A stretch of DNA of 64,000 bases from Eledone cirrhosa. Lineage: Eukaryota. The translations under genes and the position numbers were made by a program. Location of the stretch: assembly GCA_964016885.1 (NCBI GenBank), contig OZ024755.1, positions 13,206,001-13,270,000 of the forward strand, written 5' to 3'. Below the pieces are notes generated by a model that worked only from the letters and a program-made list of their open reading frames with translations, was not told the DNA's origin and searched no databases. Below are positions 21,803-59,650 of the stretch, piece after piece (position 1 is the stretch's first letter; each line of letters opens with the position of its first letter).

Positions 21803-22856
21803 GGTAATATATATATATATATATATAATGATGGCGATGGATTTGTTTTGCGAGGTTTTTCATATGAAATCGTGTGCCGAAACAAATATTGTTATACTTG
21901 GGGATGGTCATATTGTTGTAATAATATTGACAGAAATAATAACAGAACACAATCACTGTTTGGTTTTCGCTTCTGTATCTTTTATATCTCCACGGTTAAC
22001 TCATTTGGTCCTGAATGTTTATCATTGACTGACCAAAGGTCAAAAATACAGATATAAACACATATATATAGTCTAACAAAGTTCTTTCGTTGCACATCTG
22101 CAGCATCGTCAGTGGTACTATTATGTTCCTCGTATTGTATTGTATGTCTACTCCATTTTTGTTTTATCTGTTTATTATTTATTTATTTTTACGGTATAAA
22201 CACATATAAGTTTTATTCAGTTTTATAAATAACTTAACAAATTGTTCGCAATAGAATAACATAACAAATATGTTTTAAATATATACATAAATAACATTAC
22301 AAATGCTTAGATAACATTATAAATTGCTCGCGATTCTTTCAGGATATATTCCTTTAATGTTGCAAGAAAATGTAAAGGAAGGGGTGAACAACCGAGCCAA
22401 CACCAGAGCAAAAGACAGCAGCATCTCGAGGAATACTGGGCAACCTCTCTAATGATTTTTGAAGCAAGCCAGCAAACTCGCAGCGTTGCCTCGGGTGATG
22501 GCGAGGCTATTGCCGTCTAATCTCGGGTTCAATCGGGGGTAACCACAGTAAGGTACTTAATACATAGTAGAATAAATATTTAATATGGAAATGTCTTCTA
22601 CAGGGCTAGAACTGTTTCAGTCAGATGATTTCTCTCGAATGAAACAGTTCTAGTCCTGTAGAAGCCATTTCTATATTATATGTATGTGTGTATATATATA
22701 TATATAGATGTATGTATGTGTTAGGTAATTCCGAAGGAAAAGCAAAGGAAAAAAGAGTGCTCTATGTATAGAACAGAGCTATTTAATTAGAAAGTGAACA
22801 ACACAAAATATAACTACTCCATTACATCTCATTTCATATTTTTTATCCACGTCATC

Positions 22857-22922
22857 TCTGTCTGATGACCGATCCAGACGTACATTAATATTGTCTGGAA
22901 TCCAGAAACCTTTGGTAATGGA
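22857..22922 (+). ncRNA. Type I hammerhead ribozyme motif
   Basis: TCTGT-CTGATGA-ccGATCCAGAC...GTCTGGaATCca-GAAACC(ttt)GGTA-ATGGA; intact core, base of stem II mismatched. Confidence 0.65.
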
Positions 22923-22976
22923 ATAGTTATATTTTGTGTTGTTCACTTTCTAATTATATATATATATATATATATA

Positions 22977-23162: not shown

Positions 23163-26100
23163 TGTAGTGCGTGTTTGTATATGTGATTGAGAGTGTGTCT
23201 TCTCCCACTTTTTCCTCATTATGTGTGTGTTATGTATGTGTTCGTATGCATTCTATTGAAATAGACACCTCTCTATTTTCATTGTTATTGTCGTCGTATA
23301 ACAATCGAGGAGGAGAGTAATCTCAAGTTAATATATTATATACTGTCATTATATAATTGTTTCTAACTTGGCTTTTCATCCTTACCACTAATGCACTGGG
23401 TAATTGCTGGCCTTGTGCCAAAAAGTAGAAACAATTATATAATTGTTTCTACTTTAGAAATAATTGTTTTTTTACAAAAGAAACAATTTAGTAAAAAAAA
23501 AACAAAAAAAACGGGATTGTCAATACTCATAAAAATATAAAATGAAAACGAAAGAAAATAGTAATTCAACAATAAGCAATGGGTGTCAATCAGTTACACA
23601 CCCGAGCCCCCTTCAGAATGAAGAAAGAAAAAAACGGTATAACACACACACATTCTGTTACACGCACACAACAGGGAATGCTGGTGTTACCTTCTAATGA
23701 CTTTTGAGGTAAGCCAAGACACTAACAGCATTACCACGAGTGATAGCGAGGCTAAGGCGTTGGAATAGCCAAGCCCACCCGGGAACATCACCTGATACTT
23801 CTTCAGTAAGGCTAGCCTTCATTGTTAATGTTCCGGCTCTCCCGCGAACATTTCGAATGTGACAGGCTGAGAGATATATTTTACCGATAAATTACGATAC
23901 TTCAGAAGTTTATTTCCGTTCACCTATGGCTGCAGTGATCTCCGGGATGTGAAAAGGGGCGAAATTAAAAAAAAATTAATCGTATAAAAATATTTTGTTT
24001 ACATTTGAAAACAAATTGTTTCAGTTTCTGAAAATTTTAAATGCTATATAAAATTCTGTTTCAATTTACTAAAGATGAAAATATCAATTCCAAAAGCAAT
24101 CAAAATATATTCAAATTCCATTGCGATCAACTTTACTTTTCCTCCTTGTGAGATCGATAGAATAAAGTACCAGTTGAAAGTGGAATTATTAGAGCGTCAG
24201 ACAAAAGTCTTTTCGACATTTATTCCAGCTCAAAGTTGAAATTCTTGTGTCCTATGTGGGTGGTAGACTTGATCCATCACCCATTTTAATACCACCACCT
24301 ATAGGATAGTTTACTTTGTTTCAAACATTTGTTCAAGTTAGGTCTTCGGTTTAGAGATTCTTGCCTACAAATAATCAAGGCGACATTGACTAAAACGAAT
24401 TATTATTATTTTTTTAATGCAGCTGTAAATCACAGATTAAAAAAATTAATTAAAGATAATTAAAGATTCTGAATGTCTGATGCTCAAAATATATAAATCC
24501 AGCGAGGGTTTAAAAAAAAACCGCCTAAGTGCCAAAAATAGCAACCTACGGTTTAGAAACAATTAATATAAAAAGTAGACGATGCATTCATAAATATACA
24601 AATGGATGGGATGGTCACGGGTAGAGCGCATTTGATTTATAGGTCTGATTGATCAGGATCGACCGGGCTAACAACAGTAACCTTCTCACAAGATATACAG
24701 CGATAGAAAATATTTTGAAGAACAGCAGCAACTGTCACATTCTTTATTATGTCCATTTGGTCGCCTCATTCTGTCTAGGTTAGTCCTTCCCAAACTTATT
24801 TTGTCGGAGAACACTTTATGCGATTTTCAACAAAAAAAAACTTGCGAATCTATATAAATATTTCACTGATAGTCCCCACCATAATAAGATATTAAATGGA
24901 ACAGAAAGTGTTTTAGAAAGAGAATTTATTCATTCTGAAAAAAATCTTGTATATTTTAATTAAATTTTATTAAAAGACACCTTATCCTCTGGAGCCTTGC
25001 GAGGCGAAAGAAGGGAATGTAGTTTACAAGAACAGACAGACTGCAGAAGAAACACATGGCAAGACTGCCATATTATATTTCACACAATAACATATATCGG
25101 ACCGGGCAGTGTGGTGTTTCTCAATTAAACGAAAACTTTATATATATGGGGTGCAGGCTTACACATGTAAGCATACACATATATATATATACTGTATACA
25201 GTTCTATATACTTGATATCTACACGCGTATGGCTGGCTGGGATTACTTCGTACAATAAAAGAAAGCCCCTAACACCTGACCTGCTAGAAGTAGTAGCCAA
25301 ATTTCCTTAAGATAGTACCTTAATTTTGGGGGGAAGGGCGAATATATAATAAAGCGTAGCATAATATAATGTAGTCCTGGAGATAGTATGTCTTTAAAAG
25401 ACGGGATGGCCAAAGATAGAATATATGATCAATCATGTCTGACCTAGGGTTAAACAGGAACAACCACAGCAGCACTAATAAATATCTTTAGATTGAGCTT
25501 TGCGTGTGTATTTATCTATTTGTACGTGCTCAAAATATAAACTTGTTTTTAATGACTGCTGATTAGAAATTAACAATACGAAATGTATGTTTCATTTTCT
25601 TGAAATGTATTTTAATAATATAAACAAAAGCCGCCGTGAAAAACAAATGCAAGACTTAACATAGGTGTGTTGGTAAAATTATATATATATATATATATAG
25701 GAAAATGTATGACCCCGACGGCAGAGCTCAAGCCGTTTCGACGGCTATTTCTGGACTGAAATAGCCGTCGAAACGGCTTGAGCTCTGCCGCCGGGGTCAT
25801 ACATTTTCCTATTACCCACTCTACTACCCTAAGTATTGAGTACTCTGGTGCGTTATGGTCCATCTGGTTCCTTACCACAACTCCTTCGTTTTATATATAT
25901 GTATGTGTGTGTAAATAAATATGTATATATTATATATATGTGTGTGTGTTGTATGTATGTTTATATATATACACATAGGATGACGAAGAGGGTTGGGGGG
26001 TAGGAAGTCACACACGACACAAACAAAGTAATGGAATTGTTGAGAATGAGAGAAGGAAGCAGAAAGAAAAATATATAGGAACTAGTTAAAACGATAAAGT

Positions 26101-30164: not shown

Positions 30165-30485
30165 TTGTCTGGTCGGCCGGCTGGTCGGTGGGTCGGTCGT
30201 AACGTTCCCAAACATTATATTTTTTTAATTTTCATTTGTTATAAATATTATTCGTCGATAAAATCTTTACAAAACACTCATATAAATAAAGATTTATTTT
30301 TATTTTCAACTTTCGCCTTGAGTTGTCTCTTTTTGTTAATTGCATTGGCGGTATAGGGAAGAAAATAGTTTATAGTTAAACAAAAATAATTTCTGAAATA
30401 ACACTTTGGTAACAAGATTATTGCTAGTTTTGAAAACGAGGCTTAGCAGACGAGACGCCGAAATTACAAGTAATAAAATGGCGAC
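30165..30485 (+). promoter_or_regulatory. Probable CpG-rich promoter/5' end of the zinc-finger gene, with a YY1-type motif over the start codon
   Basis: CpG-rich; repeated GGTCGG at 30171-30198; AAAATGGCG at 30475-30483. Confidence 0.5.
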
Positions 30486-30541
30486 AGGAAAGCTGAGAGG
30501 AAAACCTTGGAAAAAGTCGAGAAGAGTCGCTGGAATCAAAG
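30478..30541 (+). CDS. C2H2 zinc-finger protein, exon 1
   Basis: aaaATGGCG start in a CpG-rich region; MATGKLRGKPWKKSRRVAGIK; phase 1 donor AAG|GTGAAT fits next exon. Confidence 0.65.
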
Positions 30542-31142
30542 GTGAATTTCGTTAAAAAGTATATATATGCAGACTTTAGTTGTTACTGAAACGATTTGAG
30601 CTTTATTTGATAGTTTTCACGTCGATTTAATAGCTTCAATGTGTTTATGTCGGCTGCTACAGGGAACTATGATAAGTTTTGCAGTTGTTTTGAGTTTTCA
30701 GATTGACTTCATTTTTCGATTGTCGATATTTCGATAAATATATTAATTTTATTCATATATATGCGCATATATGAGTATATCTACACATATTATTATGAGT
30801 TGCAATACCTGATTGTAAATTTATGTTAATATATATATTTTTACTACTTAATATATAGTTATATTTAAAAAAATTATTTCAATATATTTTTATACAACTA
30901 TATATGTTTAAGTATAAACTAGCGAGCCTGTATGTATATGTGTATATATATATTTAGATAAAATTTATATATATATTTGAAATATATGTATATTTAAACA
31001 TACATGAACATATATCTCTAGATGTAAAAAACACGTGTGTACATATGTATTTATATAAATATATATATATATATATAAACACGTGATACATTCATGCATA
31101 TATTTGAGTGCATATATATATATATATATCCATAAAACTATT

Positions 31143-31203
<61 letters not shown>

Positions 31204-33207
31204 ATGTATTCAATTTATATTAATTTTATGTGCAAATAGTATGTTTATGCATGTACGAGTAAATATAATTTTATTTAATATGCGTGTATCTGTGTATACA
31301 CCCCCTCCCCACAAGTGTATATATATATATATATATAAAGTGAAAGATATACACGTGTTTTTTTTTTGTATATATATAAAGTGAAAGATATACACGTGTT
31401 TTTTTTGTGTGTATATATATACATATATATGCACGTATGTATATATATATATAGAAGTGGTTACCTTCCAGTGTTCTACCACTATATATATATATATACT
31501 CATGTATGTGTTGCGTAGCTGTACGTATATAAGCCTGTTGCACCAATAGAATATATTGATAAATCTGGTGCTGTCTAATAGAAAAATTACACACAAACAT
31601 ATATATATTTATAAATTCTGTAGAGAATGATGTTTCCTTTCTCTTCAGAAAAAGATTTCATGCTGCTCACATATATTGAGTGCCCATTCAGTGAAAGTTT
31701 GAATATGTGGGCTCTTGTTCAGTTCAGGTAATCAAATTAGTGGGGAAGGAGGCTGCACCAAGAGCATAAAGTAAGAACAAGATGAATAAAGTTAAGAAAA
31801 TTATTACCTCTTCTGAGGTTATATGAAGACAGGCAAAGCATCTGGGATGGTGTAGCAGCATCATTGTCAGCTGTAAAGAAGACACTATACATAGGCTACT
31901 ATTGAGGCATCTGGTTGATGGACCAAGTCATGAAAATTAATCATGAATAGCTGATCTTATTTATATAAGGTAAAACACCTATAAACAACAAAGATGTACT
32001 AAACTGGCCAAAGTTACAAAAAGAAACAAATATATCTGTCTACTTCCTGTTATTTTAAAACAGTTAACTTCTTAATTTTCTTGTATTTTATATATATATA
32101 TATAAAGCACCCAGCTCTCACTGCAAACTGGTTGTTATGGTGTCACAATAAAAAGCACCCAGTCCACACTGTAAATATGGTTGGCATTAGGAAGGGTATC
32201 TATAGAAACCGGGCCAGAAACAGTTCTGTATGAGCAAGACACGGTCATCTGATCTGACTTGTCTCAAATGAGACAACTCATCTAACTCATCTAGCGTGGT
32301 AAATGAACATTAAATGACGATGATATATAACTGTTTTGGTATTCTATGTTTGTTTGGGGGTAAAAACTGCAGTTTAGTAATCAACACACTGGTTTCTTGC
32401 ATTGGCGCAATATATAGGGAAGAAGCAGTAGTTGGTACTTATTTACTTGACTGTTGACAGATGAAAAGAAAGGTGTCCCTAGTGAAATTTTTTCTGTTGG
32501 AATTGGTGTTCCATTAGTAGTTAGAATAATGTTTGTGTAAGTGCAGGTAAAAGGTTTATAATAGCTATTAAAAGCTAAACGAAGTAATGTATGTTAAATG
32601 ATTTGGGACTCGCATATATACCGTGCTTGCCTTAAAAGAATGGAGGCAATGCAGAGAGGACTCTTTAGTCTTTTAGGGCAAAAGGCAACCTCTCTACTAC
32701 TGGTGCAATGAGAAAATGCACCCTGCATACTCTGTATAGGTGGTTGCTGTTATGAAGGACATTCAGCCAGAATTAAAAAAAATAACATGCCAAAAATGAG
32801 ACATACAAGTGAGATGTAGTCCGCTGAACCATCTAGGAGGACAGTAACTTCAAATAAAAACTGACAGTGACAACTCATCCAGTCTAGCCTGTATGGAAAG
32901 CAGATGTAAAATGATGATAATGAACAGTACTCAGAATACTTTGTAAAGTGGTTGGTGTTAGCAAGAACATCCAGCCAGAGAAACTGTGTAGGAAGACAAC
33001 TTTAAATAAGGATTGACACAGACTGTGATAACCTATCTAACCCAGGTCAGCATGGAAAGCAAATGTAAAAATGATTATGTAATGTATATTTATAAATCTT
33101 CAGTTGTCTTCTATTCTGTGTTTGTGTATTTTTGCTTGTTAATGCTTTGAATAAATAGTTAGCATAGGAAATAATATTTAAAAAACTATTGATTTTCTTC
33201 ATTGCAG

Positions 33208-33368
33208 GAATCTGTGAGCCTTGTTGTAATAATGACAGACAAGAAGAAAGGATGAATGGATCAACTGTTGAACAATCTACGTACATGTCTTTGGATGTGT
33301 TAGCTCAAGTTGCTGCTGATACCTTACAAAACAGTGAAAGGTTTCAGTCGAAATTTGCACCGAAAAAG
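33208..33368 (+). CDS. C2H2 zinc-finger protein, exon 2
   Basis: GICEPCCNNDRQEERMNGSTVEQSTYMSLDVLAQVAADTLQNSERFQSKFAPKK; ttgcag acceptor, AAG|GTTTGT donor. Confidence 0.8.
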
Positions 33369-34198
33369 GTTTGTATTCGTTTATTCCATCTTCTATTTTG
33401 CCAAATTAGTAACAGTTGTGAAGGTGCATGGCTTAGTGGTTAGGGTTGTTATAATCACAGTTGTAAAGACATCAGTTTGATTCCTAGAAGTGCATCGTGT
33501 CTTTGAGCAAGATACTTTATTTTACATAACTCCAGTCTACTCACCTGGCAAAAATGAGTTCTACTTGTAATTCAAGAGGTTAAGCTTGTCATCTATGCAC
33601 CTTTAGAATGCTGAGCCACTTGCATGTTTATTTCGTGAGCAGGCTGTTCTGTTGATCAAATCAACTGGAACACTGATTGTGGGAACCAACAGTTGCATGG
33701 TTTTGCTATCTTTCACATGTGAGATTGATTTTCAGATATTTACAAGAACTTTGTAGCAAGAATGTCAACCGCTTCATCATAAATGGAAACATTTCACTAG
33801 ATCAACACGATAATGTTTTCCCCATGTGTACAAAATGTTTTCAATATCCTGCATTTTATGAAAAAAAAATTAAGGGTGTCCAAGGGGCCAATCTTTAGTT
33901 AACTACATTTTTAATGTAAGTGTGACAAAGAAGTATCTGCAACTCTGATGGAATAAATATCTCATGGTATTTTTGTTTGGTGCACTAGGCTATCAGATGG
34001 TCTTGTCAATGTGTACATTTTCACAGATACGCATATATGTATCTACATATATGACAGGCTACCTTACAGTATCCATCTAGAAAATTTTATTCACAAAGCA
34101 TAACATGTAACCTGGCGCTTCCTCTCCATTTTACATAATAAAACACATCCAGTCTATCCATGTTTTTTTTCACATATTTATTTATTTTCTAATTTTAG

Positions 34199-34454
34199 AT
34201 GTCAAAACGTAGCATCCAGTGCCTTGATATATTAAACCTGGAGCAAATCCAAATGTTGTCTGAGAAATCCTTACTGAATTTTTTCTCTGAGACGACATGC
34301 AATGAGCTGACACGCAATTTCACTTACCAGTGTTTTTTAATACCAGACAAATGCTGTGAGAAGTTTACCAGTTTCGGTAATGAGGCTAAAGCAAAGCTAC
34401 AGATTAGGCAACATTTAGCTGATCACATTCAACAGCTTTTAGATGAAGCTAATG
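34199..34454 (+). CDS. C2H2 zinc-finger protein, exon 3 (atypical finger)
   Basis: MSKRSIQCLDILNLEQ...YQCFLIPDKCCEKFTSFGNEAKAKLQIRQHLADHIQQLLDEAN; ttttag and GTATGA boundaries. Confidence 0.85.
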
Positions 34455-35276
34455 GTATGATATATATATATTTGTTTCTGTCTTCTGTACATTTGCATCT
34501 TGAATCTGTATGTATTTATGTATATATGTATGTGTGCGTTTGAATGCTCATGTGTACCACCAAGGTCAAATCTGTCATTCATCCTGTTGGAATTGATAAA
34601 TAAAATGTAAGTCCAAAGCAGTGGATTGGCAAGATTGTTAGTGCATCAGATGGAGTCCATTGTAGTATCTCTTTTGGTCATTTGTATTCTGAGTTTGCCT
34701 ATAATGACACTAGTGCCAAGCTGTATTGGCCCATGCCTTTCCCTTAGACAACATTGGAGGCATGGAGAGGCTTTTGCATGTACGAGTAACTGTTGGTCTT
34801 CCAAAACTTAACAAATAAAACGTTGCTCAGGTTTGAACCTTGGAGAGGAACTTTCTAGATGCAGGTCTAATGTCTCACAAGATATATGGAAGCCCCAGAC
34901 TACTGACCACATAGTCATAAGTTCAAATCTTACAAATTACAGTAATTGTGTTGGGGCTTTTTAGAAAGTTGCGTATGAAACAAACTTTAAGTTCCACTTC
35001 TACTTTTGTAGTAGGAAGTTCAACAGTTACTCGATCAAAAGAATCAACTCCCTACTCATGGAAACTTGGATGTAAAGCATTGAAAATATAATCCAAATTT
35101 ATCTCAATGGTGACCATCACCAGCTAACCAATCCTGGTGACAACCATAAAATATGATAACATTTCTGTGTGTGAACAACATTAGGACATAAAAGAAAAAA
35201 TTGAAACTGTAACATAGATTTTAATCAAAATATTAATGTGTTAGAGCAGTAAAGTGAATTTGAGTCTTCATAAATA

Positions 35277-36077
35277 CTGGTTGAAAATCCTTTATCCAAA
35301 ATGCTTGGGGCTGGAAGTGTTTTGGATTTTGGAATATTTGTATATTTTGTACACAGCATGTATAAAGTAGGACTGCTTTGGGGTGGAACACAAGCCTTAA
35401 CACAATGTCTATTTATATTTTATAATACAGTTTATACATATTTTCTGGATACAGTTTTATATAAATTACTTATAGCCTGAAATTAGTTTTATATATATTA
35501 CATATATACTGAAGGTAATTTTATATCATCATCATCATCATCATCACCGTTTTACGTCCGTTCTTCCACGCTAGCATGGGTTAGACGGGTTGTCCTGTTG
35601 TGGGCAGTGTCTGGTCGGCTGACCATGCCTTGCTCATACAGGAACTGATCTGGCTTGATTTCTACAGCTGGATGCCCTTCCTAACACCAACCTCATTTAC
35701 AGTGAGTGCTGGGTGCTTTTTCGTGGCGCCTACACGTCCACTTTACAGTGTGGGCTGGGTGCTTTTTTGCCGTGGCACCTCCACGACCACCTTGCGGTGG
35801 GGGGGGGGGGGGGGGGGCATATTGTTTATATGCTTCAGCATGTACCCATGGGAGGTCGGGTATTTAAATGTATTTATATGTATTACATATATCCTGAAAG
35901 TAGTTTTATATACACTGAAGGTAGTTCTATATAAAGTATATATACACTGAAGGTAGTTCTATATAAAGTATATATACACTGAAGGTAGTTCTATATAAAT
36001 TATATATACCTGAAAGTAGTTTTGTCAATCATGTCAGCTCTAGATTTTGGAATTTCAGATAAAAGATTCTTAACCTG
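35277..36077. mobile_element. Tigger/pogo-type non-autonomous element interrupted by a SINE
   Basis: TA-CTGGTTGAAAATCCTTTATCCAAAAT...ATTTCAGATAAAAGATTCTTAACCTG-TA TIRs; SINE inserted at about 35525-35800. Confidence 0.75.
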
Positions 36078-36161
36078 TATATACTATATATAATTTAAAC
36101 AGATAAAGGTATATGTGTGTGTGTCTTTTAACTGACTTCTTTTGATCATTTTCCACTGCAG

Positions 36162-36230
36162 ATACTGAGCGAAAATATAGATTCATCTTCACTGCTGAAC
36201 CAGTCCATGTTCGACAACGGAGACTATCAG
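36162..36230 (+). CDS. C2H2 zinc-finger protein, exon 4
   Basis: DTERKYRFIFTAEPVHVRQRRLS; ctgcag acceptor, CAG|GTAACA donor, 69 nt, phase 1-1. Confidence 0.8.
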
Positions 36231-37021
36231 GTAACATTTTAAAATACTTTTTAATTCTTGCTCCAATTGGGTGACAATCAAGGAATGTTGGGTACAGTGA
36301 TAGGTTGTACTGCAGATATGTTGAGATCAGTTGATTGATGTTGTGTATATGATTGCTAGTGTAGAAGCCACTTCTGAAACATGCCCTCTTCTAATGTTTG
36401 GTTCCTATCCAGAGAGTTTTCCATTCTGTTAGTATGTACTTCAGCAATTTCTGTGGGCACAGCATAGCTGAATCATTAAGAAGTTTACTTTGCAATCATA
36501 AGGTTCTGCATCTAATTTCACCTCATGGCATTTCGGTGTCATTTATCACAGTCTCAGGTTGACCCAAGCTTTGTGAGTAAAACTGGGTAGACAGAAATAT
36601 AAGTAAGATTAAAGTAAGTGCAACAGGCAGGATTTAAATTTTACAAATCAAGAGGCCTTATCATCATCATCATTTTATATTCACGATGTGATAATGGCTA
36701 GTCCAACCCTTGCTAGCAGGGAAAGTAGACATTAAACAATGATGATGCTATGGGTGATGGTGTAGTGATACTGATAGTAGTAATAGTAAGGTAGAGTTAG
36801 AGAGATAAGTAGTTGAATACAGACAAATCAGAAGGCCTCTTGTGGGCAGGTGGTAAATAGGTCAGTAAATGAAGATTTTTAGTGGTTGTAATGAGCAAGA
36901 GGCCCGATATATCCAGTTTCTATCTTCTTCACCTTTTTCTTTAACAACCATGTATGTTTTGTAATATATTACCTTTATAAAAATAATTAATATCTTTTTG
37001 TTTGCCTATCACTTATTCTAG

Positions 37022-37819
37022 AAATGGATAAAATGAAGAAGAGAAAATCAGTATGTGTAAATAGCCCTCATGTAAATAAAAATAACCAACAGAGAACGCG
37101 AACATTACGGAAAACATTCACCAGTTTAAAGGCTTCCAAAGAAATTCATTGTGAGAACAAAGTTCCAATTCAGAGTCAAAGCATATGTGACATTAATGAA
37201 ACCCAGACCTTGTCAAGGTGTACCAGATCTTGGAATAAACAAAAAGTACCAATTGAAAAGAGTGTTATACCAAATCAAAATGGTTCCTGTTCTCAAAGAA
37301 CCACAAATCAGAAGCAACAGTATCCTAAAAAACAGTTAAAAAATAAAAATCCACCTAAGTGCAACAAGCAGAACATTGTTGCCCCACTTTTAAAATCTGC
37401 TGCCAAGATGGATGTCAAAGTTGAAGATGAGAGCAGTACAAGTAGTTCGTTCCCTCATGTGGATGAGGATCCACTTCCCAGAGATGCTGCCAGAAGAATT
37501 GAAGAGAATGAACTATTTATTGTGGATTTATTAAACAGGACTCAACCCTATCTTGACCATTGCTATACAACTATATTTGGTAAAAAACGTGGCATTGAAA
37601 CCTTTCATAAGCGTCTGGATGATGAATGTGACAACATTAATAACAATAATGGTGATAATGAATATATAAACTTGGCTGAAGGTGATAAAGAGGTGTTTCC
37701 AATACTTGAGTTAAGTTTTTGTAATGATGGAGAAATTCCTCAAGTGGCACTGGAAGAAGTTGTTGATTCTCCAGATGTATTATTGGCAAGTGAAGACACA
37801 CTGGGACATTGTGGACTAA
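37022..37819 (+). CDS. C2H2 zinc-finger protein, exon 5 (long linker with DHCY motif)
   Basis: 798-nt open exon; ttctag acceptor, GTAAGT donor, phase-consistent. Confidence 0.88.
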
Positions 37820-38995
37820 GTAAGTGAATTTCTTCATTCTTTAACTCTTAACATTGTGTAATGATTTAGCATAACATATCTAAAAATGGAGTTTGTTAAT
37901 TCAAATGTTTATGGTATCTATACTAGTGGGTAGATCGTTGAGAACATTTGAAATATTAGAGTAAAGACTTTAATTTTTAATGTGGTGCTGTTTTGTACTT
38001 TGTAAGAATGTCTTACTAATGCAGTTCCATGGGATACGGGATCATCGTCAGCATCACTGTTTGAACAAACACTAAATATGCTATTATCTCCAAGATTATT
38101 TTTCCATATAAGCTGTGATATGTTTGACGTGATTACTCTGGTTATCACCCATTTTTCATGCTGGCATGTGTTGGACAGCTCATTCCAGTTCAGGCCAGTT
38201 CTTATTCAGAGTTACTGCCCTTCTAGACAAGTTGGAAGACCCATGTCTCACTCATACCTTTCATTCATGTACATTGTACATTATTTTTATTGGTGGATGG
38301 ACTTTCTAACAACAGTCACCATCATCATCATTGAACGTCCATTTTCCATGCTTGCATGGATTAGACGGCTTGTCACATTATGAGACAAGTCAGGTCCAGA
38401 GATCACGTCATGCTCATACAGATCTGTATTTTGGCTTGGTTTCTATGGCTGGATACCCTTCTTAACACCAACCTAGGTGCCTTTTATTGTGACACCAGCA
38501 CAAGAGAGGTTTTGTTCTCCACATAACTAAAAACACCTCTCTACTCCATGCTGTTTGATCACCAGCCACTCTACAGAGTGTATTAGGTGCATTTTATCAT
38601 GGTAGCAACAGTAGAAAGGTTGTCATGTCTTCTACATGGCTAAAGAATCTTATTTTTCCTATTCAAATTCTTCATTATTTTCAAAAATAATATTTGAAAA
38701 TCATATATAGTATTTTTCATTAGATATATGGTAACAAAAGGGTTGAAGTGTTTATATTTATCTTTAAAATCTTTCGTCATAATTTTATGTAAGGCCCTTT
38801 GTTAAGTTATGTTCCAAACACCAGCTTAATTATGTTAAAGTTATATTACTCAAAATTCTCGATTATTTTCAAATGTATTTAAAGATCAAAGGCAATGTTT
38901 TCATTAGAAATATGTTAAGAAAAGGGTTAAGTAAAATATATATTGATTGAGAGACTGACAATATGGTTATATATATATGTATATTATTTATGTAG

Positions 38996-39156
38996 AACCT
39001 TATCCACCAATGCCAAAATCAGCTTTAGCAAAGAAGGGTAAAATTCAAGTGCCTGAAGAAGAGGAATCATTTAGTGAAGGTGAAAAGAACACAGAAGAAA
39101 TCAATGGAAAAAAAAGTGAAGATAATGAAAATGATGTTGTTGATGATTTGGAGAGA
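38996..39156 (+). CDS. C2H2 zinc-finger protein, exon 6 (acidic)
   Basis: KPYPPMPKSALAKKGKIQVPEEEESFSEGEK...DDLER; tgtag and GTAAGT boundaries. Confidence 0.85.
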
Positions 39157-39214
39157 GTAAGTGGTTTTTCTTCCTTTATATATTTCGTATTTTCTATACA
39201 AGTGTTTTAAGGCC

Positions 39215-39650
39215 ATTTTTTTCCTAAAGCCTTGGTTAGCCTTGCAGCAGGCCCCATGGTATGCTGCTCTATTTTGCCCTATCCTGTGAATCTTCCCACA
39301 CCTACTCTTGCTTTCATTTTCTCCTCCACCATTTTTTGTCGTGTCTTTCTTGGTCTTCCCCTTCCTCTACTTCCTTCCACATTCGTTTTTCTCAATTTCC
39401 CCACAACCACCACCACCATGTTCCTCCTTCCTTAATACATAACTCAACCCTTTCATTCCATTTCTCTTCACAACATTCATCACTGACTCTATTTCCATCA
39501 CCCTCTGAAATTCATTGTTATCCTCCTCTCTCTGAATGATATTCCACTCATTCACATTTTTGTTTTTCCAGCCTTCTCTGCTGTTCAATGGTCATCATCC
39601 ATGTTTTGTTGCCATAAATTATGTCACTTCTCACACTTGTCGCATACACT
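39215..39650 (-). mobile_element. Decayed RTE-type LINE 3' end
   Basis: VEGSRGRGRPRKT motif typical of RTE ORF C-termini. Confidence 0.6.
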
Positions 39651-39778
39651 GGGGTCAATGTTATTGACTAAATGAGAGCAGTACCCCAGCATGGCAGCTG
39701 TCTAATGCATGAAACTAATAAATATGAAATACTTTCTACATTACATTAAAATATGTCTTTTCCCCACTTCTATTCCAG

Positions 39779-39914
39779 AAAACTGCTCTACATTACATCC
39801 GAGAACTCAAAGCTCGAAAGAAAGATGAAAAAATTTCCCTTACTTGTCAAATTTGTTTAAATAAAACATTCACAGCTAGTGCAACACTAATGTACCACTA
39901 CCGTAGTCATGCTG
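39779..39914 (+). CDS. C2H2 zinc-finger protein, exon 7 (finger 1)
   Basis: KTALHYIRELKARKKDEKISLTCQICLNKTFTASATLMYHYRSHA; ttccag and GTAAGT boundaries. Confidence 0.93.
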
Positions 39915-40520
39915 GTAAGTGACATTTCAGCTACATTTTACACTTTAGCATTTAAACGGCCGTATCCTGCCAGAATTCTCTCACCTCTTTCTGTTCAAAG
40001 CGGCCATAACCGGCTGCTCATACTTATGTTAAGGTATTATTCTCAAAATAAATAATATCAAAATTTTATAGATTTGATATTACGTGGGATAATTATGTGA
40101 AATAAAGTGTTTCCTATGAAAATACAATAGTAAGTATAGAATAATGTAAATGCTAAAAAGTTAATTAGTCTACACTATACAGCGGTCGTTTTGGTGCCAC
40201 AACAAAAAGTGCCAAGTCCACAAAGTGGTTTTTATTGGTGTCAAGACAAAAAGCACTTGGCCAACACTGTAAAGGGGTTGTTTTGGTGCCACGATAAAAA
40301 GCACCCATTCCACACCAGCTTAAAAGAATCATTAATAAGTATCTAAAAACTAAATGTTTAATGCCTGTAATTCTTTTGTAATATATTTTTTTAAAGTTGT
40401 ACAGTGTATATACATGTGTATGTTCTGTTTTGTATTCATATGATTTCATTTAAGGATATTCAATCTCTCTTAAATTACCTCAAACTAATGTTGTTTTTTT
40501 ATTTGCTCATATGTTTTCAG

Positions 40521-40666
40521 GGATCAAACCTTTTGTGTGCCTTCTATGTAGAACATCCTTTACCAGACAACATAGCCTCAATTATCACATGTTGATTCAT
40601 AACGACCAAAGCCGATTCACATGTAAAGATTGCGGTAGAAAATTTAGACATCCGAGCCATTTTAAG
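40521..40666 (+). CDS. C2H2 zinc-finger protein, exon 8 (fingers 2-3)
   Basis: GIKPFVCLLCRTSFTRQHSLNYHMLIHNDQSRFTCKDCGRKFRHPSHFK; tttcag and GTAACT boundaries. Confidence 0.95.
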
Positions 40667-41116
40667 GTAACTTTTTATGTTTTTGTGTTTTGTGTTGTGA
40701 GATATAATTGCTATGCAGAAAATCTATGTGCATTTATGGGTTGTAAGTTCACATTCTTCTTGTGATATCAACACAGGAAGTTCAGAGTACAGTATGTGAG
40801 TTATTTAGTTATCATGTATGTTGACAAAGGTGCAGCTGTGTGGCTTTGCAATCATGAGATTCCAGGTTTGGTCCTTTTGCATGGCATCTTAGGCAAGTGT
40901 CATTTACCATAGTTTTAGGTTGATGGGGAGCTGTGTGGAAGCTCATTGGATGGATTGTATTTGTAATTCAAAGATCCAACCTTGTCTGTGATAATTGGGA
41001 TAAACCTTGGGCCAATGGACTTTAATTTTTGCGACATTTGTTTTTCATTTCAAAACCATAAAATCCATGTTTCAATATAGTAAAATAAGTTTTCCATTTC
41101 TTTTACTTTCATCAAG

Positions 41117-41368
41117 GAACATCTACGACGGCATACAGGAGAAACTCCTTTTGAATGCAAAGACTGTCCTCAAAAATTCAAAACCCGTAATACATATAAA
41201 AGACATTTGAAAACACGACATGGGAAATTGCTTACTGCAACAGGCATTCATGTGTTATCCAAAGAAGAGTTTATGAAGGTGAGGACCAAGCCATACAAAA
41301 AATATCAGTGTGGAAAAGACACAGAAGCAGTTGTAGAACATGAAAATCCTGAATCCAATGAATCATGA
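41117..41368 (+). CDS. C2H2 zinc-finger protein, exon 9 (finger 4, stop)
   Basis: EHLRRHTGETPFECKDCPQKFKTRNTYKRHLKTRH...SNES-TGA; AAG acceptor; total CDS 2043 nt = 680 aa. Confidence 0.93.
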   Translation, partial: EHLRRHTGETPFECKDCPQKFKTRNTYKRHLKTRHGKLLTATGIHVLSKEEFMKVRTKPYKKYQCGKDTEAVVEHENPESNES

Positions 41369-42821: not shown

Positions 42822-43478
42822 CTATATATATATACATATATGTGTATGAGTATATATTTAAGTGGTTTTATATCAGAAGTGCTGTTTTTTCTGATGATGA
42901 TGGAAAAATAAACCATCTTAGCTGTGTGTGATCTGGGGTAAAGTGCAGCAATTCACCCATTCTTGGGCATGGTACAATACTTCAATCGAATCTAGATCAG
43001 AGAACCTAAGATTCTTGTACTATTTCATATGTTTGTGTATTATTGTAATGTATATATATATGCTTGTTTTATAGGTTTATGTATTTACATGCATTCAACA
43101 TGTATTGAATAAAGGACTCAATATTGCTTCAAAAGTCAAAATAATATTTATCATTAATAGAGACTGTTTACTTCAAAGTTTTGTTACTACACAGTTTTGA
43201 GAAGCCAGTATCAGCAAAACTTCAAAGTAAACAGTTAGTATTGATAATAAATATTATATATGTATGTATATGTTATTGAGGGAATGGAATGTACAATTCC
43301 TCAGTCACTGATAAATTTCATTTCAGTTCCATATTATCAGATTGTTAATGACAAATTGTATTTTCAATTCTCTCTATACAAATACATACTCTTCTTATAT
43401 ATTGAGTTCTCTTTCTTATAAAGAAACCCTTTACTAGTATTATATGTATGTATATTCACACAGATAGATGTGTGTATG

Positions 43479-43515: not shown

Positions 43516-44328
43516 GGAAAGTGTTACACATTTGTGCAGTAGGCAAGACATAAGTGATTTGAATCTCAATAGTTTTTTTTTCATTCTTCAATTATTGTAA
43601 TCTATAAAGTTTGATAGCTGTCTATATAAAGTATTATTTGCTATTAATCTATATCATTATCATTTAACAAATGTTAAATGATGATTATGCTATTATAGAT
43701 TAATATTATATATATATGTCTTATTAGTTTAAGCAAACTATTTCTGCTTTCACCCTAAAGCGGGATCATCTGAAACTTTTATGCATACAACCCTTATATC
43801 GAATCATCTGGATTTTGGTTTTTGTATTTATTATTACTACTATATATATAAACAATCTATTTAGAACTGTTGAGTGATAGGAAGTTTATTGAATTTGAAC
43901 ACATCAACATTGTTTGACTATGAAAAATAGTCTAGTATATAAACTCTGGAGATGGAAAAAATTTGGGCAGTACTGTACAAATGTTTTCTGTCTTCAGGGT
44001 TTATATGTCCAACTTAGACTATTTTTCATAGTCAAACAACGTTGATGCATCTAACTTTTAAATTCAATGAACATGTGTGTGTGTTTATATATACATGTAT
44101 GTATATGTATAAGTGACAGTTACTTGTATTGCAAGTAACTGTCACTTTGTTATATCGAGTATATCATTTCACTCTATTCAATGTATAGAGATCTACTATC
44201 TGAGAATGTTCCCAATGTGTATAATATATACTTGTCTATGTCTTACAGCAACTACATTATGATATATATATTTGTAATTTATCTAATTTTTATATTCACA
44301 AACATTCACACATTCTCTCTTTATCTTT

Positions 44329-49006: not shown

Positions 49007-50584
49007 TAATTGTTAAAAAATTGAAGTTACTTACATTATTTTGGCTTCAAAATCATTAATCCTTTTTAGGAAAAAAAGAATATATATATTTATAAATATT
49101 GTTGTCTGAATGTAGGGCTGTAATCACTAAGGAAAGTAAGATCAGTTTGCTTCTGGAAACTCCGAGTACCTAGGAAAGTATATGCCAGTTTGCCATGTAT
49201 ATTATATAATATAGTATATTGATGATGAATATATATATATATAATTCCATTTGTTGAAGAAAGCTGTATTTGTATTTACATAAATGTTATTACTCCATTG
49301 TACAACAGTTAGACAAATAGTAGAAAATTAATATCCAGCAACTGTAGTTTCCTCTAACTCTGTACCATAGTGTGGCTGTTTATATTTACACATTGTTTCA
49401 TGATAAAACACCTGAGAGGACGTTGGACGCTGTAAATAGTTGTTTGATCATGATGTATTTGTAGAGGTGAATAAGTAAACATATATGTATATATATGTGT
49501 GTGTGTGTGTGTGCATATATATATGTGTGTGTGTGTATTATATATATAGATATAATTAGAGTGGATTATTTTTGGTAAGGTCCGTTAAGTTCAATGTGTT
49601 ATTAGAGTCAACAGCATGTAGAAATCTAAGTCAGATCAAAGGTATACCTCAATGGGTTAGAAAATTTGTAGTTGCAGTGAAAGCCACAGAGCTTAATACA
49701 ACATTTTGTATTAAGTATATATATATATATATTACTTTGAAGTAATATTCTGTTGTAGATGAACAGGGTTAGATTTCGATATACACTGAAGAATCTGTGG
49801 TGGGGGGTGAAGATATTTATAGTTTGTTCAACATTTGTGATGATTTTAACCCTTTCGTGACCTTATTTCAATTAATTAGTGAAGAATTTTGTGGGATTTA
49901 ATGAAATCATTAATTATCTCATTACTAAGATAGTAACTTAATAAATGGCTCTTATATAAAGTTATGCTGGAAGATTTTAATTTAGAATGGTTGATTTTAT
50001 TTCATAGAACCAGAGCTAGTTTTGGTTAGGTTAGTATCAAAAGGTTTAAATATTGTTCATTCCTGAAGTACTGTTTATGTAGGTGAACAGGATTAGATTT
50101 GGATTCATGCTGGAAAATCTGTGGTATGGTGTATATGGTTACATTTTGATTAACTTTATATAATATTTAATGTAAATGAACATGTTTAGATATTAATCAA
50201 TATTTAAATATTGTCATGTGGGTGAACATGGTTAGATTTTGTTTAACACTGGAAAATATGTTGGTGAACATGTTTAAATGTTGTTCAGAGCTGAAGTATT
50301 ATGTAGTAAGTCAGCAGGGTTAAATTTTAGTTTATACTGGAAAGTCTGTGGTGTGATGAACATTGTAATATGTTGTTCAATACTAAAGTGCTGTTTATTT
50401 TTAGGTGAACATGGTTAGATTTTGGTTAACACTAAAGTGTCTGTGATGTAAATATTATTTGACAGGCATGGAAGTATTTGGGATGTTATTGAATATTATT
50501 ATAGTTTCATGTGGTTAAAATATTTGCAGATCTAGTGAACAGAGTTAGATGTCATTTGATGAGGAAGTAACCCAGACAGAAGTA

Positions 50585-50920
50585 TCTGTAGTGTTGGTAA
50601 ACATGGTGAGATACTGTTTAACAGTGAACATTCTGTGGTTGGTGAACATGGTGAGATACTGTTTAACACTGATCATCCTGTGGTGTTGGTAAACATGGTG
50701 AGATACTGTTTTACAGTGAACATTCTGTGGTTGGTGAACACAATGAGATACTGTTTAACAGTGAACATCCTGTGGAGTTGGTGAACATAAATGAATACAG
50801 TTTATCAGTGAACATCCTGTGGTATTGGTAAACATGGTTAAACATCGTTTAACACTGAAGTATCTATTAAACACTGTTCAATAGTGAAGTATTGTTTGCT
50901 GTAGCTGAACATGGTTAAAT
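50585..50920. repeat. 47-49 bp minisatellite with decayed copies upstream to about 49740
   Basis: Unit ttggtaaacatggtgagatactgtttaacagtgaacattctgtgg. Confidence 0.9.
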
Positions 50921-51286
50921 ATTCTTTCACACAAAAGAAGCTGTGTTGTTTGCAAACATGTTAAAAGGTTATTGATCAAACTACAATCAATCGATTCCAG
51001 AAATACACAATACCACACAACACTACACACACATACTGAAACTAAGCACACACATATTCACACAAATGCTACTTTTAATACACCTAATCTATGTTTGGCT
51101 GAGAGATCCACATGATTACGATGCATATATGCATGAATATGTGTGTAAGTGTGTGTGTGTCCATATTTCTATGGACGGACACACACACAGACACAGAAAT
51201 ATATATATATATATAGGCACACACACACACATATATATAACTTGCTAGTAGAGAAAGTAGACATTAAAACAAGGATGATGATGATG

Positions 51287-51337: not shown

Positions 51338-51632
51338 TGTTTCCTTGAGCAAGACACTTTATTTCACATTGCTGCAGTTTACTCAGCTGTAGAAATGAGA
51401 TGATACGACTGGGGTCCCTATCATTCCACTGTAAAGTGGTCGTGGAGGTGCCACAGCAAAAAAGCACCCAGCCCACACTGTAAAGTGGACGTGTAGGCAC
51501 CACGGAAAAAAAGCACCCAACACTCACTGTAAATGAGGTTGGTGTTAGGAAGGGCATCCAGCTGTAGAAATCAAGCCAGAATCAGTTCCCGTCCTACCCT
51601 TGCAAGCAGGGAAAAGCGGACGTAAAATGAAT
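51330..51632 (+). mobile_element. Second SINE family (CORE-like ccttgagcaagacact segment, internal ~45-bp repeats, (ATG)n tail)
   Basis: Near-identical copies at about 2180-2492 (+), 13052-13365 (-), 35525-35800 (-), 53190-53450 (+) and 55775-55988 (-). Confidence 0.85.
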
Positions 51633-51811
51633 GAAATGAAATAAATATATATATATATATATATGATGATGATGATGATATAGATATTTTTTTTTTTTTT
51701 TTTTTTTTTATATATAACAGTGACATGTAAGGCACTTGCATTTCGTTGGGTTATGCACCATGCACTCCAACTCATTCAGCCTGTTATAAAAACCAAAGAT
51801 GTTACTTTATA

Positions 51812-51861
51812 ACAGGCTGAATGAATTGGGGTGCATAACCCAATGAAACTTAAGTACCTGT
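51812..51861 (+). ncRNA. Type I hammerhead ribozyme motif (one extra base in core)
   Basis: ACAGG-CTGAATGA-ATTGGG(gtgcataa)CCCAAT-GAAAC(ttaa)GTA-CCTGT: stems I, II and III all pair; predicted cleavage after GUA at 51856. Confidence 0.75.
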
Positions 51862-51889
51862 ATATATCACTGTTGTAACTAATTATACT

Positions 51890-52418
51890 TAATAATAATA
51901 ATGAAATTATTGTGTAAAGTGCTCAGGTGCACTACAACTCGTCAAGAAAGTACATAGAATAATACACAAATGTCAGGGAAGTACATGTGTGTATGTGTTA
52001 GCTGTAGTGTTGGCGGATCTCGGGAAGCATGGAGGCCTTAAAGGATGCAGTGTCTCGACAGCTAACAACTGATGCAGGTAGTTTGTTCCATGCTTCAGCA
52101 ACTCTGAGCGTGAAAAAATGTTTCCGAAAGTCATGGGAACTGTGCTGTTTTCTTACTTTGTGGGCATGTCCACGTGTGTTAGACACATGGAAATCGAAAA
52201 GGCACTCAGGGTTGTTGTTGGCAACATGGTTAACAATTTTGTGGGTGTTTACCAAGTCAGTTGCCAGACGTCGGAGCTTCAATGAATCCATGCCCAGGGA
52301 AGCAAGGCGCTCAGAGTATGGTAGATGCCTGATGGAGGGTATTCGCTTGGTTGCACGTCTCTGAACAGTTTCCAGGCGGTCAATGTCCTGAGCAAGATAG
52401 GGGTTCCAGACTGGTGAT
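51890..52418 (-). mobile_element. 5'-truncated CR1/L2-type LINE (RT C-terminus plus 3' UTR)
   Basis: SPVWNPYLAQDIDRLETVQRRATKRIP...YSERLASLGMDSLKLRR...TRGH...FFTLRVAEAWNKLP; (ATT)n tail. Confidence 0.9.
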
Positions 52419-52478
52419 GGACTGAGTGCTCTTACCCTTGGATATTTCTACCAAAGTTTTACTATATATATATATATA

Positions 52479-52747: not shown

Positions 52748-53448
52748 CTCCCTCTACCTTTTCTTGAAATCTTTGAAAAAAGAATTCAATAAAATTTATA
52801 GCTCACACCTTTATGCAGATTTAGCTGGTGGCTTATGAAGTTGCATCTTATAGGAGGTTTCTTAGATGTTTTAATGATAGGGCTCCCAGTCATAACATGA
52901 AAACAATATGAAATGACGTGTCTTTCTCAAGAACCCAGTGCATCGACCAGTCCAGGTATTGAAACCCTGACCTTATAATTGAGTCCAACACCCTAACCAC
53001 TAGGCCACATACCTTCATGTTAGGGTTGAGAAGATTGGCTCATGAGCTGATTCTATGACTGACAATGTCCCTAGTGGTATTGGCATGATAAAACACACAC
53101 AGTGTACTCAGTAAAGTAGTTGCTGTTAGGATCAGCATCCAGTCATAGAAACCATACCAAAAGGGAACAGGCAATCCCAACAAAAACATTTCTCCAGTTT
53201 ACTCAGCTGTAGAAATGAGATGATAGGACTGGGGTCCCTATCATTCCACTGCAAAATGGACATGGAGGTGCCACGGCAAAAAAGCACCCAGCCCACACTG
53301 TAAAGTGGATGTGTAGGCGCCACGGAAAAAAAAAACCCCAGCACTCACTGTAAATGAGGGTGGTGTTAGGAAAGGCATCCAGCTGTAGAAATCAAGCCAG
53401 AATCAGTTCCCGTCCCACCCTTGCAAGCAGGAAAAAGCGGACGTAAAA

Positions 53449-53482
<34 letters not shown>

Positions 53483-54194
53483 CAAAATTTAATATAGAAA
53501 TGGCTTCTACAGGACTAGAACTGTTTCATTCGAAGGATATCATTAGGAAAGCTTTCCTGATTATTTCCTTTGAATGAAACATTTCTAGTCCTGTAGAAGC
53601 CATTTCAATATTAAATTTTGTTGTATACACTCTACTAATGTATTGAGTACCTTACTTACTGTGGTTACCCCCGATTGAATCTGGGACTCACACACACATA
53701 TATATATATAAATAATGTATTGGAGATCAAGTGACGCAACTTCGAGCGATTAGTGGCCTCTAGACTCACCTGATCAATGAAACAATTGTTAATACCTGAA
53801 ATAAAGCCCCTTGTTGTACAGCCAGCCATGTTACTCTTCAATCTTTCACTATATATATATATATATAAACGTTTAATTAACTCAGCCAATATAGAAAGAT
53901 ACCAAAGATGATGTCTGCAGTGTAGGTGTTATAATTTAGCTGATCTATTTATGGTATTATTTATAGTTAGGGTTGTTCCAGACCTTATACTACTACTACT
54001 ACTATATACTACAGCTGTAGTTGCTGTTGTTGTCATGGCTAAGTTATTAAACCCTATGTTGTATTGTCATGGTCTGTTGCCCTACAGCAATCAATGACAG
54101 AGGTTTGCGGCTGAGGATTTCATTTGATTGAGATGTAACAAGGCTGGATGAGATTAATTTTTTACACTACTACAATACTTGTGAGACAAGTTGT

Positions 54195-55746: not shown

Positions 55747-56879
55747 TATATACGTATACACATATATATCCTCATCATCATCACCCTTATACGTCTGTTC
55801 TTCCACGCTAGCATGGGTTAGATGGGTCGTCCTGTTATGGGCAGTGACCAGTCGGCTGACTTTGTCTTGCTCATACTGGAACTGATTCTGGCTTGATTTC
55901 TACAGCTGGATGCCCTTCCTAACACCAACCTCATTTACAGTGAGTGCTGGGTGCTTTTTTTCTGTGGCGCCTACATGTCCACTTTACACACACACACATA
56001 TATATATATATTTTATATGTGTGTATGTGTATATGTAGGTAAGTATTGATAATACCAATTATGTCTAGTCAATAATAGTATACATGTTGTGTTATCTTTT
56101 GTGAAAGTTGATTTGGCCACACATGTAGTTGAAAGTAAGACAACAATCTGGAATATTTATGCTTATATTATGTCTATCAACAACCTATTATATTTATGTC
56201 AATCAACCTGCTCTAATGACAGCTGAGTGTTAAACACTTCTCACAGAAGTCTTGATTGAGTTTTTTGTCTTAAGTGTTTCACATGTCTGACAAGAGAAAA
56301 AATAACACCACCACCAATATCAACACCTGGTTGAAGAGGGCTTACACATGCCTTGAGGCATCTAGGTGATCTCCGACAGACTGGATATTCAGCAGCCCCT
56401 ATCTGGACCCTGGTCTGTCCTGGAATCCTTCTTGTCACCAGAACAATATGGGAATCAAGTCTGTGCATCTCCTGCTTCATTGGAATCTACTCATCTGTGC
56501 AGAACTCATCATATATAATAAACAATTACATAAGATATTTAGTCTTCTTGGTACAGAAAGCAGAATGGTATGGTATGGTCCTGTAACTTCTAGTGGTGTT
56601 GTAGGGGTGCTATATTGGCATACAGCATTTCTTGACATTTTAAGCCTGGTACTTTTTTTATCGACCTCAAAAGGATGAAACGCAAAGTTAATCTTGGCAG
56701 GATTTGAATTCAGAGAGCAGATAGCCAGACTGAATACTACAAAGCACTCTATTCGATGTTCTAATGACACTGATAATTTGCTGCCTTAGAAAGCAGAACA
56801 CCTAAGGCTAATTGAGGAAGCCCATAGATCTGCATCTCTGCCAATCAGCTACTTTGCCTATTTGATACCAGAGTTTAAA

Positions 56880-58241: not shown

Positions 58242-58534
58242 GTAATCCATGCATGCATGGAATATTGGATGTAAAATGATAAATTATATATACATGTGTG
58301 TGTGTGTGTGTGTGTGCGTTTATTATATCTGTATGTGTGTGTATTTCTATATATATATATTAATAAAAGATTGGCGGCCATATTCAGTTGATTCAGGTTT
58401 ATTTAAAACTCCGTTATACATATTTCACTGAGGACTATCAATTATCAGATGGCAAAACCTAAAATAAGGAAAATTTTTAGATTCTTCCAAATTTAAAGGT
58501 TTCTTAGGAACTTTCTATGTTTATTTTAGGTTTT

Positions 58535-58595
58535 GCCACCTGAAGAGCCCAGGCTATCATAATTGATAGTCCTAAGTGAAATATGTATAACTGAG
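58535..58595 (+). ncRNA. Decayed type I hammerhead motif
   Basis: CTGAAGA-gcccAGGCTATCA(taat)TGATAGtCCTaagt-GAAATATGTATA; core intact, stem I eroded. Confidence 0.5.
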
Positions 58596-58673
58596 TTTAA
58601 AATAAACCTGAATCAACTGAATATGGCCTCCGATCTTTTATTAATATATATATATATATATATATACATATAC

Positions 58674-58952: not shown

Positions 58953-59128
58953 CTAAGTGATAGGCTTATCAATCACAACAACTCCTGCATAACTTCGTCC
59001 AGTCGCCATACATGAAGGTAATAAGGTCCATTTATTGTTTTTGGCATCATAGCACTCAATGGAGCCCAAATTTGAAGAACCATCATCTCCGCCTATCACA
59101 TACAAAAACCCTTCGTTTGTCACAACCC
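58953..59128 (-). CDS. KLHL2: Kelch-like protein, last coding exon
   Basis: GVVTNEGFLYVIGGDDGSSNLGSIECYDAKNNKWTLLPSCMATGRSYAGVVVIDKPIT-TAG; C-terminus resembles KLHL2/3. Confidence 0.95.
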
Positions 59129-59650
59129 CTGCAAAATAAACAATTACAATATCATATAATGGTGATAGTGTGTTAGGGTTAGGTACTTTTTTTTTACAAC
59201 AAGCAACAACAAGCATTTTAAGGCCATTTTCCCTGCTAAAACAATGAGTGGAACAGATTAAGTGAAGGGAGAAAGTGTATGTATGGTGAGTGAAGGGTGC
59301 AAGTGTAATGTGAGTGGAACAGGCTGTAGGGGGTGAGTAATAGAAGAAGGAGCAATCCACCCTTTCATTACCATATTTCTAATGAAAAACACTGCTAAAT
59401 GATTTTCAATTAGTTTTGAAAATTATCAAGAATTTAGAAGGATTTATTGATATAACTAACTTTCTCATTATTAAGCAACTGAGCTGCTTGGAATCTAAGG
59501 TTCTTACATAAAATTACAATGGAAATTTGTTTAGATACATATGAAGACTTTAAATTAACAGTTTGGTATTATAGAACCAGAGATAATTTAGGCACACTGG
59601 TACCAAAAGGTTTAAGATGTGATGAAATAATTATTTTCTGTTTAACATAC

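Follow-up and report, generated by a model that had tools for sequence, protein, structure and literature searches.

A head-to-head pair of truncated octopod repeat ends, likely Penelope-like, with an A6a-type hammerhead core variant

A palindrome between two convergent genes

In the 64-kb window (the whole stretch of DNA that was analyzed), a palindrome composed of two head-to-head copies of a repeat end is located between a C2H2 zinc-finger gene and a kelch-repeat gene. The two genes are convergent, and the palindrome lies ~10 kb and ~7 kb, respectively, past their coding ends. The features of the locus and its surroundings are as follows.

30478-41365, + strand: C2H2 zinc-finger gene with nine coding exons, the largest exon having 74% identity to an Octopus bimaculoides protein
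51643-51712: left flank with TA, TGA, and T runs (AT-rich microsatellite target)
51710-51801, - strand: left arm, an inverted and decayed copy of the same family end, delimited by alignment and reaching ~51801
51772-51779, - strand: 8-nt core of the left arm; the pair that follows is G-C, as in the family majority, and the triplet is GUG (predicted to be inactive)
51802-51805: approximate junction of the head-to-head arms, placed from family depth and spacer sequence
51806-51888, + strand: right arm, the 3′ end of a repeat family, likely Penelope-like, 5′-truncated ~4 to 6 nt before stem I
51812-51861, + strand: type I hammerhead motif (stem I, 51812-16/51857-61; stem II, 51825-30/51839-44; loop II, 51831-38)
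51817-51824, + strand: 8-nt core CUGAAUGA, with an extra base after A6 ("A6a") and none after A9
51848-51856, + strand: palindromic stem III ACUUAAGU and the predicted cleavage site after A51856 (GUA)
51880-52447, - strand: right flank, the 3′ end of an unrelated truncated LINE, whose TAA/ATT tail abuts the palindrome; open frame at 52001-52447
58956-59378, - strand: last coding exon of the kelch-repeat gene

The open frame of the right flank, which we take to be that of a LINE from its peptide, has no Pfam match. An exon elsewhere in the window (14104-14487, - strand) presumably encodes the end of a protein-kinase domain, and it has no Pfam match either.

Alignment of the two arms places the truncation of the left arm further upstream than that of the right arm. 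Because the spacer, read on the minus strand (CATCTTT followed by a T run), resembles the upstream loose ends of other family copies, the left arm appears to have been truncated later than the right arm. The left arm is also decayed: its triplet is GUG, its stem I is down to 3 pairs, its stem III has three changes, its loop II contains a 7-nt duplication, and it has lost 1 nt by deletion. The initial annotation correctly gave this arm the same core and a stem II closed by G-C, but left the decay, with the GUG triplet and the broken stems I and III, unmentioned. A similarity of the left-arm duplication to LINE 3′ ends (13 of 15 positions alike, E = 1.5) was treated as chance.

A type I hammerhead motif with an 8-nt core

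On the + strand, the right arm can be parsed into three stems around a core, with stem I open (type I layout) and stem III predicted to form between two copies only. Stem I (ACAGG at 51812-16 and CCTGT at 51857-61) is followed by the 8-nt core CTGAATGA at 51817-24, stem II (ATTGGG at 51825-30 and CCCAAT at 51839-44), GAA at 51845-47, and stem III ACTTAAGT at 51848-55, which is a perfect palindrome. All elements of this anatomy, including the GUA triplet, were recovered as they had been proposed in the initial annotation. The GAAA sequence, the A15.1-U16.1 pair, and an NUH triplet are present in the right arm (GAAA ... GUA), while the left arm fails with its GUG. Under a strict descriptor that allowed 7- or 8-nt cores and required 5, 5, and 2 pairs in the stems, the sole match in the real window is at 51817, and the same descriptor found a match in 1 of 200 dinucleotide-shuffled windows. 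Relaxing it to 4, 4, and 2 pairs gave a match in 10 of 200 shuffled windows.

The canonical 7-nt core, CUGANGA, is not matched; the core is 8 nt long in both arms and in the family. By sequence, it is the A6a variant, in which one base is added after A6 while C3, U4, G5, A6, G8, and A9 are kept. A hammerhead core requires the C3-G8 pairing and A9, and we rejected on this basis an alternative parse with the spare base after A9 (U at 8 and G at 9), which breaks both. Mutants of C3 and G8 were used in a study of a Penelope-like element (PLE) hammerhead (PMC11167929), which bears on the C3-G8 requirement. No Rfam family matched the 64-kb window at the gathering score, and no hammerhead family was among the 17 matches obtained around the locus at E ≤ 10. 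These matches, mostly to miRNA-type hairpin models, were rejected as generic hairpin matches. Since both arms and the family share the 8-nt length and no Rfam hammerhead model matches, we class the locus, from its letters, as a hammerhead core variant and not as a canonical hammerhead.

Bases 51807-51811, immediately upstream of stem I, could pair with 51834-51838 of loop II through four to five A-U pairs, best in the majority-level variant with T51834. Such a pairing resembles the loop II pseudoknot of type I hammerheads; the bases involved are AT-rich, and the match is possibly due to chance.

The extra core base is a trait of a high-copy repeat family

We examined four of the six listed public runs: three contig sets derived from a single sample, possibly the very source of the window (X1 to X3), and RAD reads from another sample with the same species label (X4). 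Contigs and reads were aligned to the right arm (51786-51879) at ≥80% likeness, which favors copies resembling the window. The right arm was matched by 694, 743, and 696 contigs in X1 to X3 and by 294 RAD reads in X4. The locus thus belongs to a high-copy repeat family of the octopod genome. Family depth leaps from ~30 to >1,100 at 51806-09 and ends ~20 to 25 nt past stem I; the loose ends beyond 51878 match the window to ~51888. One contig equals the right arm with 0 differences and another crosses the spacer with 6 differences; they may be alleles, paralogs, or assembly chimeras. Exact-pattern scans for the family in metagenome and viral contigs gave 0 matches.

None of the 40 substitutions listed (45 in all) falls into the core at 51817-24. 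In X1, the tallies by substitution type show that a single C>T, a single G>A, and a single G>T place are absent from the list, so that no variant reaches 2% in X1 at U4, A6, the extra A, U7, or A9. An empty indel table constitutes no evidence here, since a group shifted by one base is reported as loose ends. For the same reason, the bound on core length rests on the depth step and on the alignments that start upstream and stay in register. A copy with a 7-nt core would align only from 51821 on, so the depth step there limits such copies to at most 9.1, 8.7, 7.4, and 9.7% in the four runs. Starts at 51806-12 that continue in register number 89, 108, and 126 contigs and 106 reads. Judged in this way and among the loose ends listed (there are 190 others), the 8-nt core is in register in at least ~90% of the depth that crosses the core, in two samples. 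A loose-end group that looked like a loop-length variant was rejected as such, being a substitution variant of the same length.

Because at least ~90% of the core-crossing depth has the 8-nt form, the extra core base is a family trait and the majority state. It had been argued from its presence in both arms that the base predates the duplication, and a count of genomic copies carrying it had been proposed as a check; the family copies bear out both the argument and the check.

Stem II pair and variation across the motif

The basal pair of stem II is G10.1-C11.1 in the left arm and in the family majority, and A-U in the right arm. In the contig runs, G accounts for 76 to 79% of the depth at 51825 and C for 80 to 83% at 51844, and in the RAD reads, G is found at 51825 in 149 of 156. 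The window's letter at 51825 makes up 20 to 21% of contig depth versus at most 2 of 156 RAD reads. Because G51825 and C51844 are the family majority, the left arm retains the ancestral G-C state, and the A-U pair of the right arm is derived. C51844 is part of a CpG, and the G next to it leads all positions of the contig runs in G>A rate (6 to 8%); decay of CpG is expected to raise this rate. The right arm differs clearly from the family majority at three positions, two of which pair with each other, a double change with a chance of ~1 to 3% if private and neutral. The A-U pair may mark a minor subfamily, or it may stem from a second template, from repair templated by the hairpin, or from luck. 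The difference between the arms had been presented as covariation in stem II, but selection is not supported by it, given that G-C is the family majority, A-U is derived, and one side is a CpG. The arms are more different than one would initially expect, with 3 versus 8 to 9 private changes (P = 0.15 to 0.23).

Better evidence for selection on the fold is the clustering of common subfamily variants in loop II (51833, 51834, and 51836), with one more at 51862, just outside stem I. Variants with a frequency above 20% occupy 3 of 8 loop II positions versus 0 of 42 other motif positions (Fisher's test, P = 0.003), a count that omits the places where the window departs from the majority and a P value that exaggerates the significance because two of the three loop II variants are probably one linked subfamily.

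In stem I, an A at 51816 (4 to 5% of contig depth) and a T at 51857 (~1%) would together form an A-U pair; the main RAD group with A51816 appears to be uncompensated.

Predicted folding as a dimer and masking at the locus

In the isolated right arm, the predicted pair probabilities are 0.84 to 1.0 for stem I, 0.95 to 0.98 for stem II, and <0.01 for stem III, as a monomer. When two right arms are cofolded, the double hammerhead is the minimum (-34.6 kcal/mol versus -22.2 kcal/mol for two monomer hammerheads), with the ACUUAAGU palindrome as an 8-bp intermolecular helix. The modeled stem III of the right arm is of the dimer type and fits the dimer model of PLE hammerheads, in agreement with what the initial annotation had supposed of its short palindrome.

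The right arm alone shows a modest gain in folding over shuffles (z = -1.7; 10 of 200), and the 181-nt stretch over both arms is a hairpin (z = -12 versus shuffles). For an RNA that includes both arms, the hairpin is predicted at -87 kcal/mol, and a hammerhead fold would cost 49 kcal/mol more. Because the arms would pair together and mask the ribozyme, this copy is predicted to be inert in read-through RNA, whatever the ability of its core. The suggestion of a possibly active natural core variant can be kept in part: the variant is natural, although not new in kind (A6a has been published), while "active" does not apply to this locus in read-through RNA, given the predicted pairing of the arms.

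Known hammerheads and Penelope-like elements

A base inserted after A6 is common to the Eledone family and to the A6a insertion reported by Perreault 2011 (PMC3088659), a natural hammerhead variant with low activity. The letters of a marine-metagenome example in a supplementary figure of that paper appear, as we read the figure, to give the same core. That paper presents A6a as a rare core variation of an environmental hammerhead with a stable stem III and its own tertiary context, whereas the Eledone family, a high-copy animal repeat whose stem III is of the dimer type, has A6a as its majority state.

The hammerheads of metazoan PLE pLTRs are described by a consensus that consists of a U-rich flank, CUGANGAH, G...C, GAAAN, a palindrome, NUH, and an AU-rich flank (Cervera and de la Pena 2014, PMC4209133). 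The Eledone family shares with them the type I layout, a stem I of 5 bp, a stem II of 6 bp, a small palindromic stem III, the U-rich and AU-rich flanks, and G10.1-C11.1 (in its majority state), as well as dispersed truncated copies and pairs of motifs on opposite strands. An 8-nt junction between stem I and stem II is also common to both, being found in 42 of 44 rows considered from PMC4209133. The extra base, however, is located after A9 in those hammerheads (CUGANGAH) and after A6, with none after A9, in the Eledone family, where G10.1 directly follows A9 in the left arm and in the family majority. A core with an extra base after A6 occurs in 0 of the same 44 rows, which were collected with a descriptor that required CUGANGA. 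Read from its letters, the Eledone family keeps the 8-nt junction length and shifts the spare base from A9 to A6, and descriptors with CUGANGA miss an A6a-type core.

PLE hammerheads cleave slowly in vitro (PMC4209133, PMC6765202), and one of them cleaves only with PLE protein (PMC11167929). A diminished palindromic stem III and cleavage as a dimer, as proposed here, are features of small PLE-associated hammerheads (Lunse, Weinberg and Breaker 2017, as reviewed in PMC6765202). Typical PLE insertions are truncated at the 5′ end, lie next to an inverted truncated copy, and occupy microsatellite targets (Craig et al. 2021, PMC8557442). Strong 5′ truncation, an adjacent inverted copy, and a microsatellite or TA-rich target are likewise found at the Eledone locus, which is reduced to ~80 to 90 nt per arm in comparison with those units. 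PLEs make up 6.83% of the O. vulgaris genome (PMC13282606). The possibility that the family is the end of octopus Naiads was rejected for two consensus sequences, in which the motifs are absent and the 3′ end of Naiad_Obim is unlike the family; no family motif was found in the part of the PMC8557442 supplement that holds octopus Naiads, where a motif interrupted by a line break may be missed.

Each component is thus already known: the hammerhead of PLEs, stem III of the dimer type, the insertion of inverted truncated copies, and A6a. What we did not find in print is a high-copy animal repeat family in which A6a is the majority core and replaces the usual spare base after A9. In the literature considered, A6a is not reported from any PLE or cephalopod family; the 2017 survey of small PLE hammerheads and supplement file 1 of PMC4209133 may hold such a case.

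Origin of the palindrome and the status of its core

Several traits of PLEs are found at the locus and in its family: a hammerhead near the element end, T-rich upstream loose ends, U-rich and AU-rich flanks, and a 5′-truncated copy with an adjacent inverted 5′-truncated copy in an AT-rich or microsatellite target. The family is likely a Penelope-like retrotransposon, and the palindrome is, by analogy, most likely the usual inverted 5′-truncated Penelope insertion. We propose, with a probability of about 0.6, that the locus joins, head to head, two 3′ ends, truncated to different extents, of a high-copy octopod repeat, likely a PLE, that the A6a hammerhead of the family would slowly cleave itself as a dimer in the parent RNA, and that this copy is predicted to be inert. 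In the parent element, tandem or paired RNAs would bring two motifs together via the ACUUAAGU palindrome, completing stem III, and the dimer would cut after GUA, probably weakly and with help from protein. Insertion would then yield a 5′-truncated copy and an inverted 5′-truncated copy in an AT-rich microsatellite. In vitro, the protein of an Anolis PLE cuts both strands of the target and extends them (PMC11167929), and a similar activity could produce head-to-head pairs, perhaps from two templates. The left arm would have decayed once inserted, and the right arm would have gained its A-U pair at the base of stem II; any RNA crossing both arms would form a long hairpin in which the ribozyme is hidden. 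This copy, situated between two genes, is probably an inert relic.

A bolder form of this proposal, which we put forward only tentatively, is that an octopod Penelope lineage fixed a rearranged core, with the spare base moved from A9 to A6, that is functional across several subfamilies as a ribozyme licensed by dimerization or protein. Should it be true, high-copy ribozyme families may be hidden in animal genomes, including "hammerhead-less" PLE clades, because published PLE surveys required CUGANGA. If the family core cleaves, the natural hammerhead core is widened, and standard descriptors and Rfam are shown to miss such families. The family-wide A6a core also offers a direct test of selection for catalysis in PLE hammerheads, and it allows core plasticity, as well as how many hammerheads current descriptors miss, to be tested cleanly and cheaply.

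The core could instead be dead, the extra A having arisen in a source element for which cleavage was unnecessary, with amplification of a crippled ribozyme. A base inserted after A6 should distort the core, and the published A6a has low activity (PMC3088659). Common descent would by itself suffice to maintain a uniform core, and because hammerhead cleavage is dispensable for insertion of the Anolis PLE in vitro, where PAc hammerhead mutants inserted normally (PMC11167929), a dead core could have spread; Naiad PLEs have spread without canonical hammerheads (PMC8557442). We nevertheless consider this explanation unlikely, if by no means far-fetched, given that the subfamily changes cluster in loop II while the core, stems, palindrome, and GUA are fixed, which suggests that the fold was kept across source lineages. 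That the extra base was a private mutation in the template of this single insertion might be expected from its presence in both arms, as if copied from one mutant RNA, but the 8-nt form in at least ~90% of core-crossing family depth in two samples largely refutes this and makes it exceedingly improbable.

Two further explanations concern the unit that moved. The family could be a non-autonomous retrozyme or SINE-like unit mobilized by PLE proteins and not the end of an autonomous PLE: a type I motif whose stem III is a short palindrome would suit a retrozyme, retrozymes are described as PLE derivatives (10.64898/2026.07.22.740005), and no coding link to the family was found. Among window frames of ≥120 codons, inspected by eye over the first 200 residues each, no PLE reverse transcriptase or GIY-YIG domain was noticed. 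Yet the locus has no tandem head-to-tail copies, the 64-kb window has no other copy, the inverted arrangement and asymmetric truncation fit PLE insertion, and other family copies continue upstream (median, ~70 to 125 letters) into shared T-rich sequence and not into a mirror arm, all of which renders a retrozyme improbable. The same upstream continuation argues against the 165-bp palindrome itself being mobile as a fold-back MITE, with the hammerhead likeness as a passenger or chance. We regard such a MITE as very improbable despite the strong hairpin, the TA-rich flanks, and the many palindromes in the window, since coverage of the locus-specific spacer amounts to one contig in X1, palindrome centers differ between copies in a neighboring hammerhead-like family, and the motif passes the strict descriptor. 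No strand-changing joint occurs among the loose ends listed, where contigs may break at palindromes.

Other repeats in the window

The neighboring hammerhead-like family forms palindromes at 1256-1357, 22578-22681, and 53476-53627, and has an unpaired copy at 7429-7495 (- strand). It contains remnants of a 7-nt core, GAAAC, and a near-palindromic stem III region, in what is a candidate parse. Its three head-to-head palindromes have three different centers and one shared 3′ end, and lie mostly beside TA-rich sequence. Arms that start at varying places in the family sequence but stop at a common one agree with what has been described for PLE insertions (PMC8557442). In four palindromes of other families (6889-7233, 22780-22960, 25697-25812, and 58331-58673), the arms read outward via CTGATGA, CTGAAGA, and GAAA; these palindromes are likely further fold-back PLE ends. 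Short palindromes without an obvious hammerhead core are found at 2093-2159, 15665-15729, 43141-43257, 43642-43705, and 43902-44047.

A degenerate tandem array with a period of 45 to 47 nt extends over 49740-50983. A SINE-like repeat is present in three copies that are 92 to 96% alike (51366-51630, 53186-53451, and 55875-55988), the first two of which each precede a TA run and a hammerhead palindrome.
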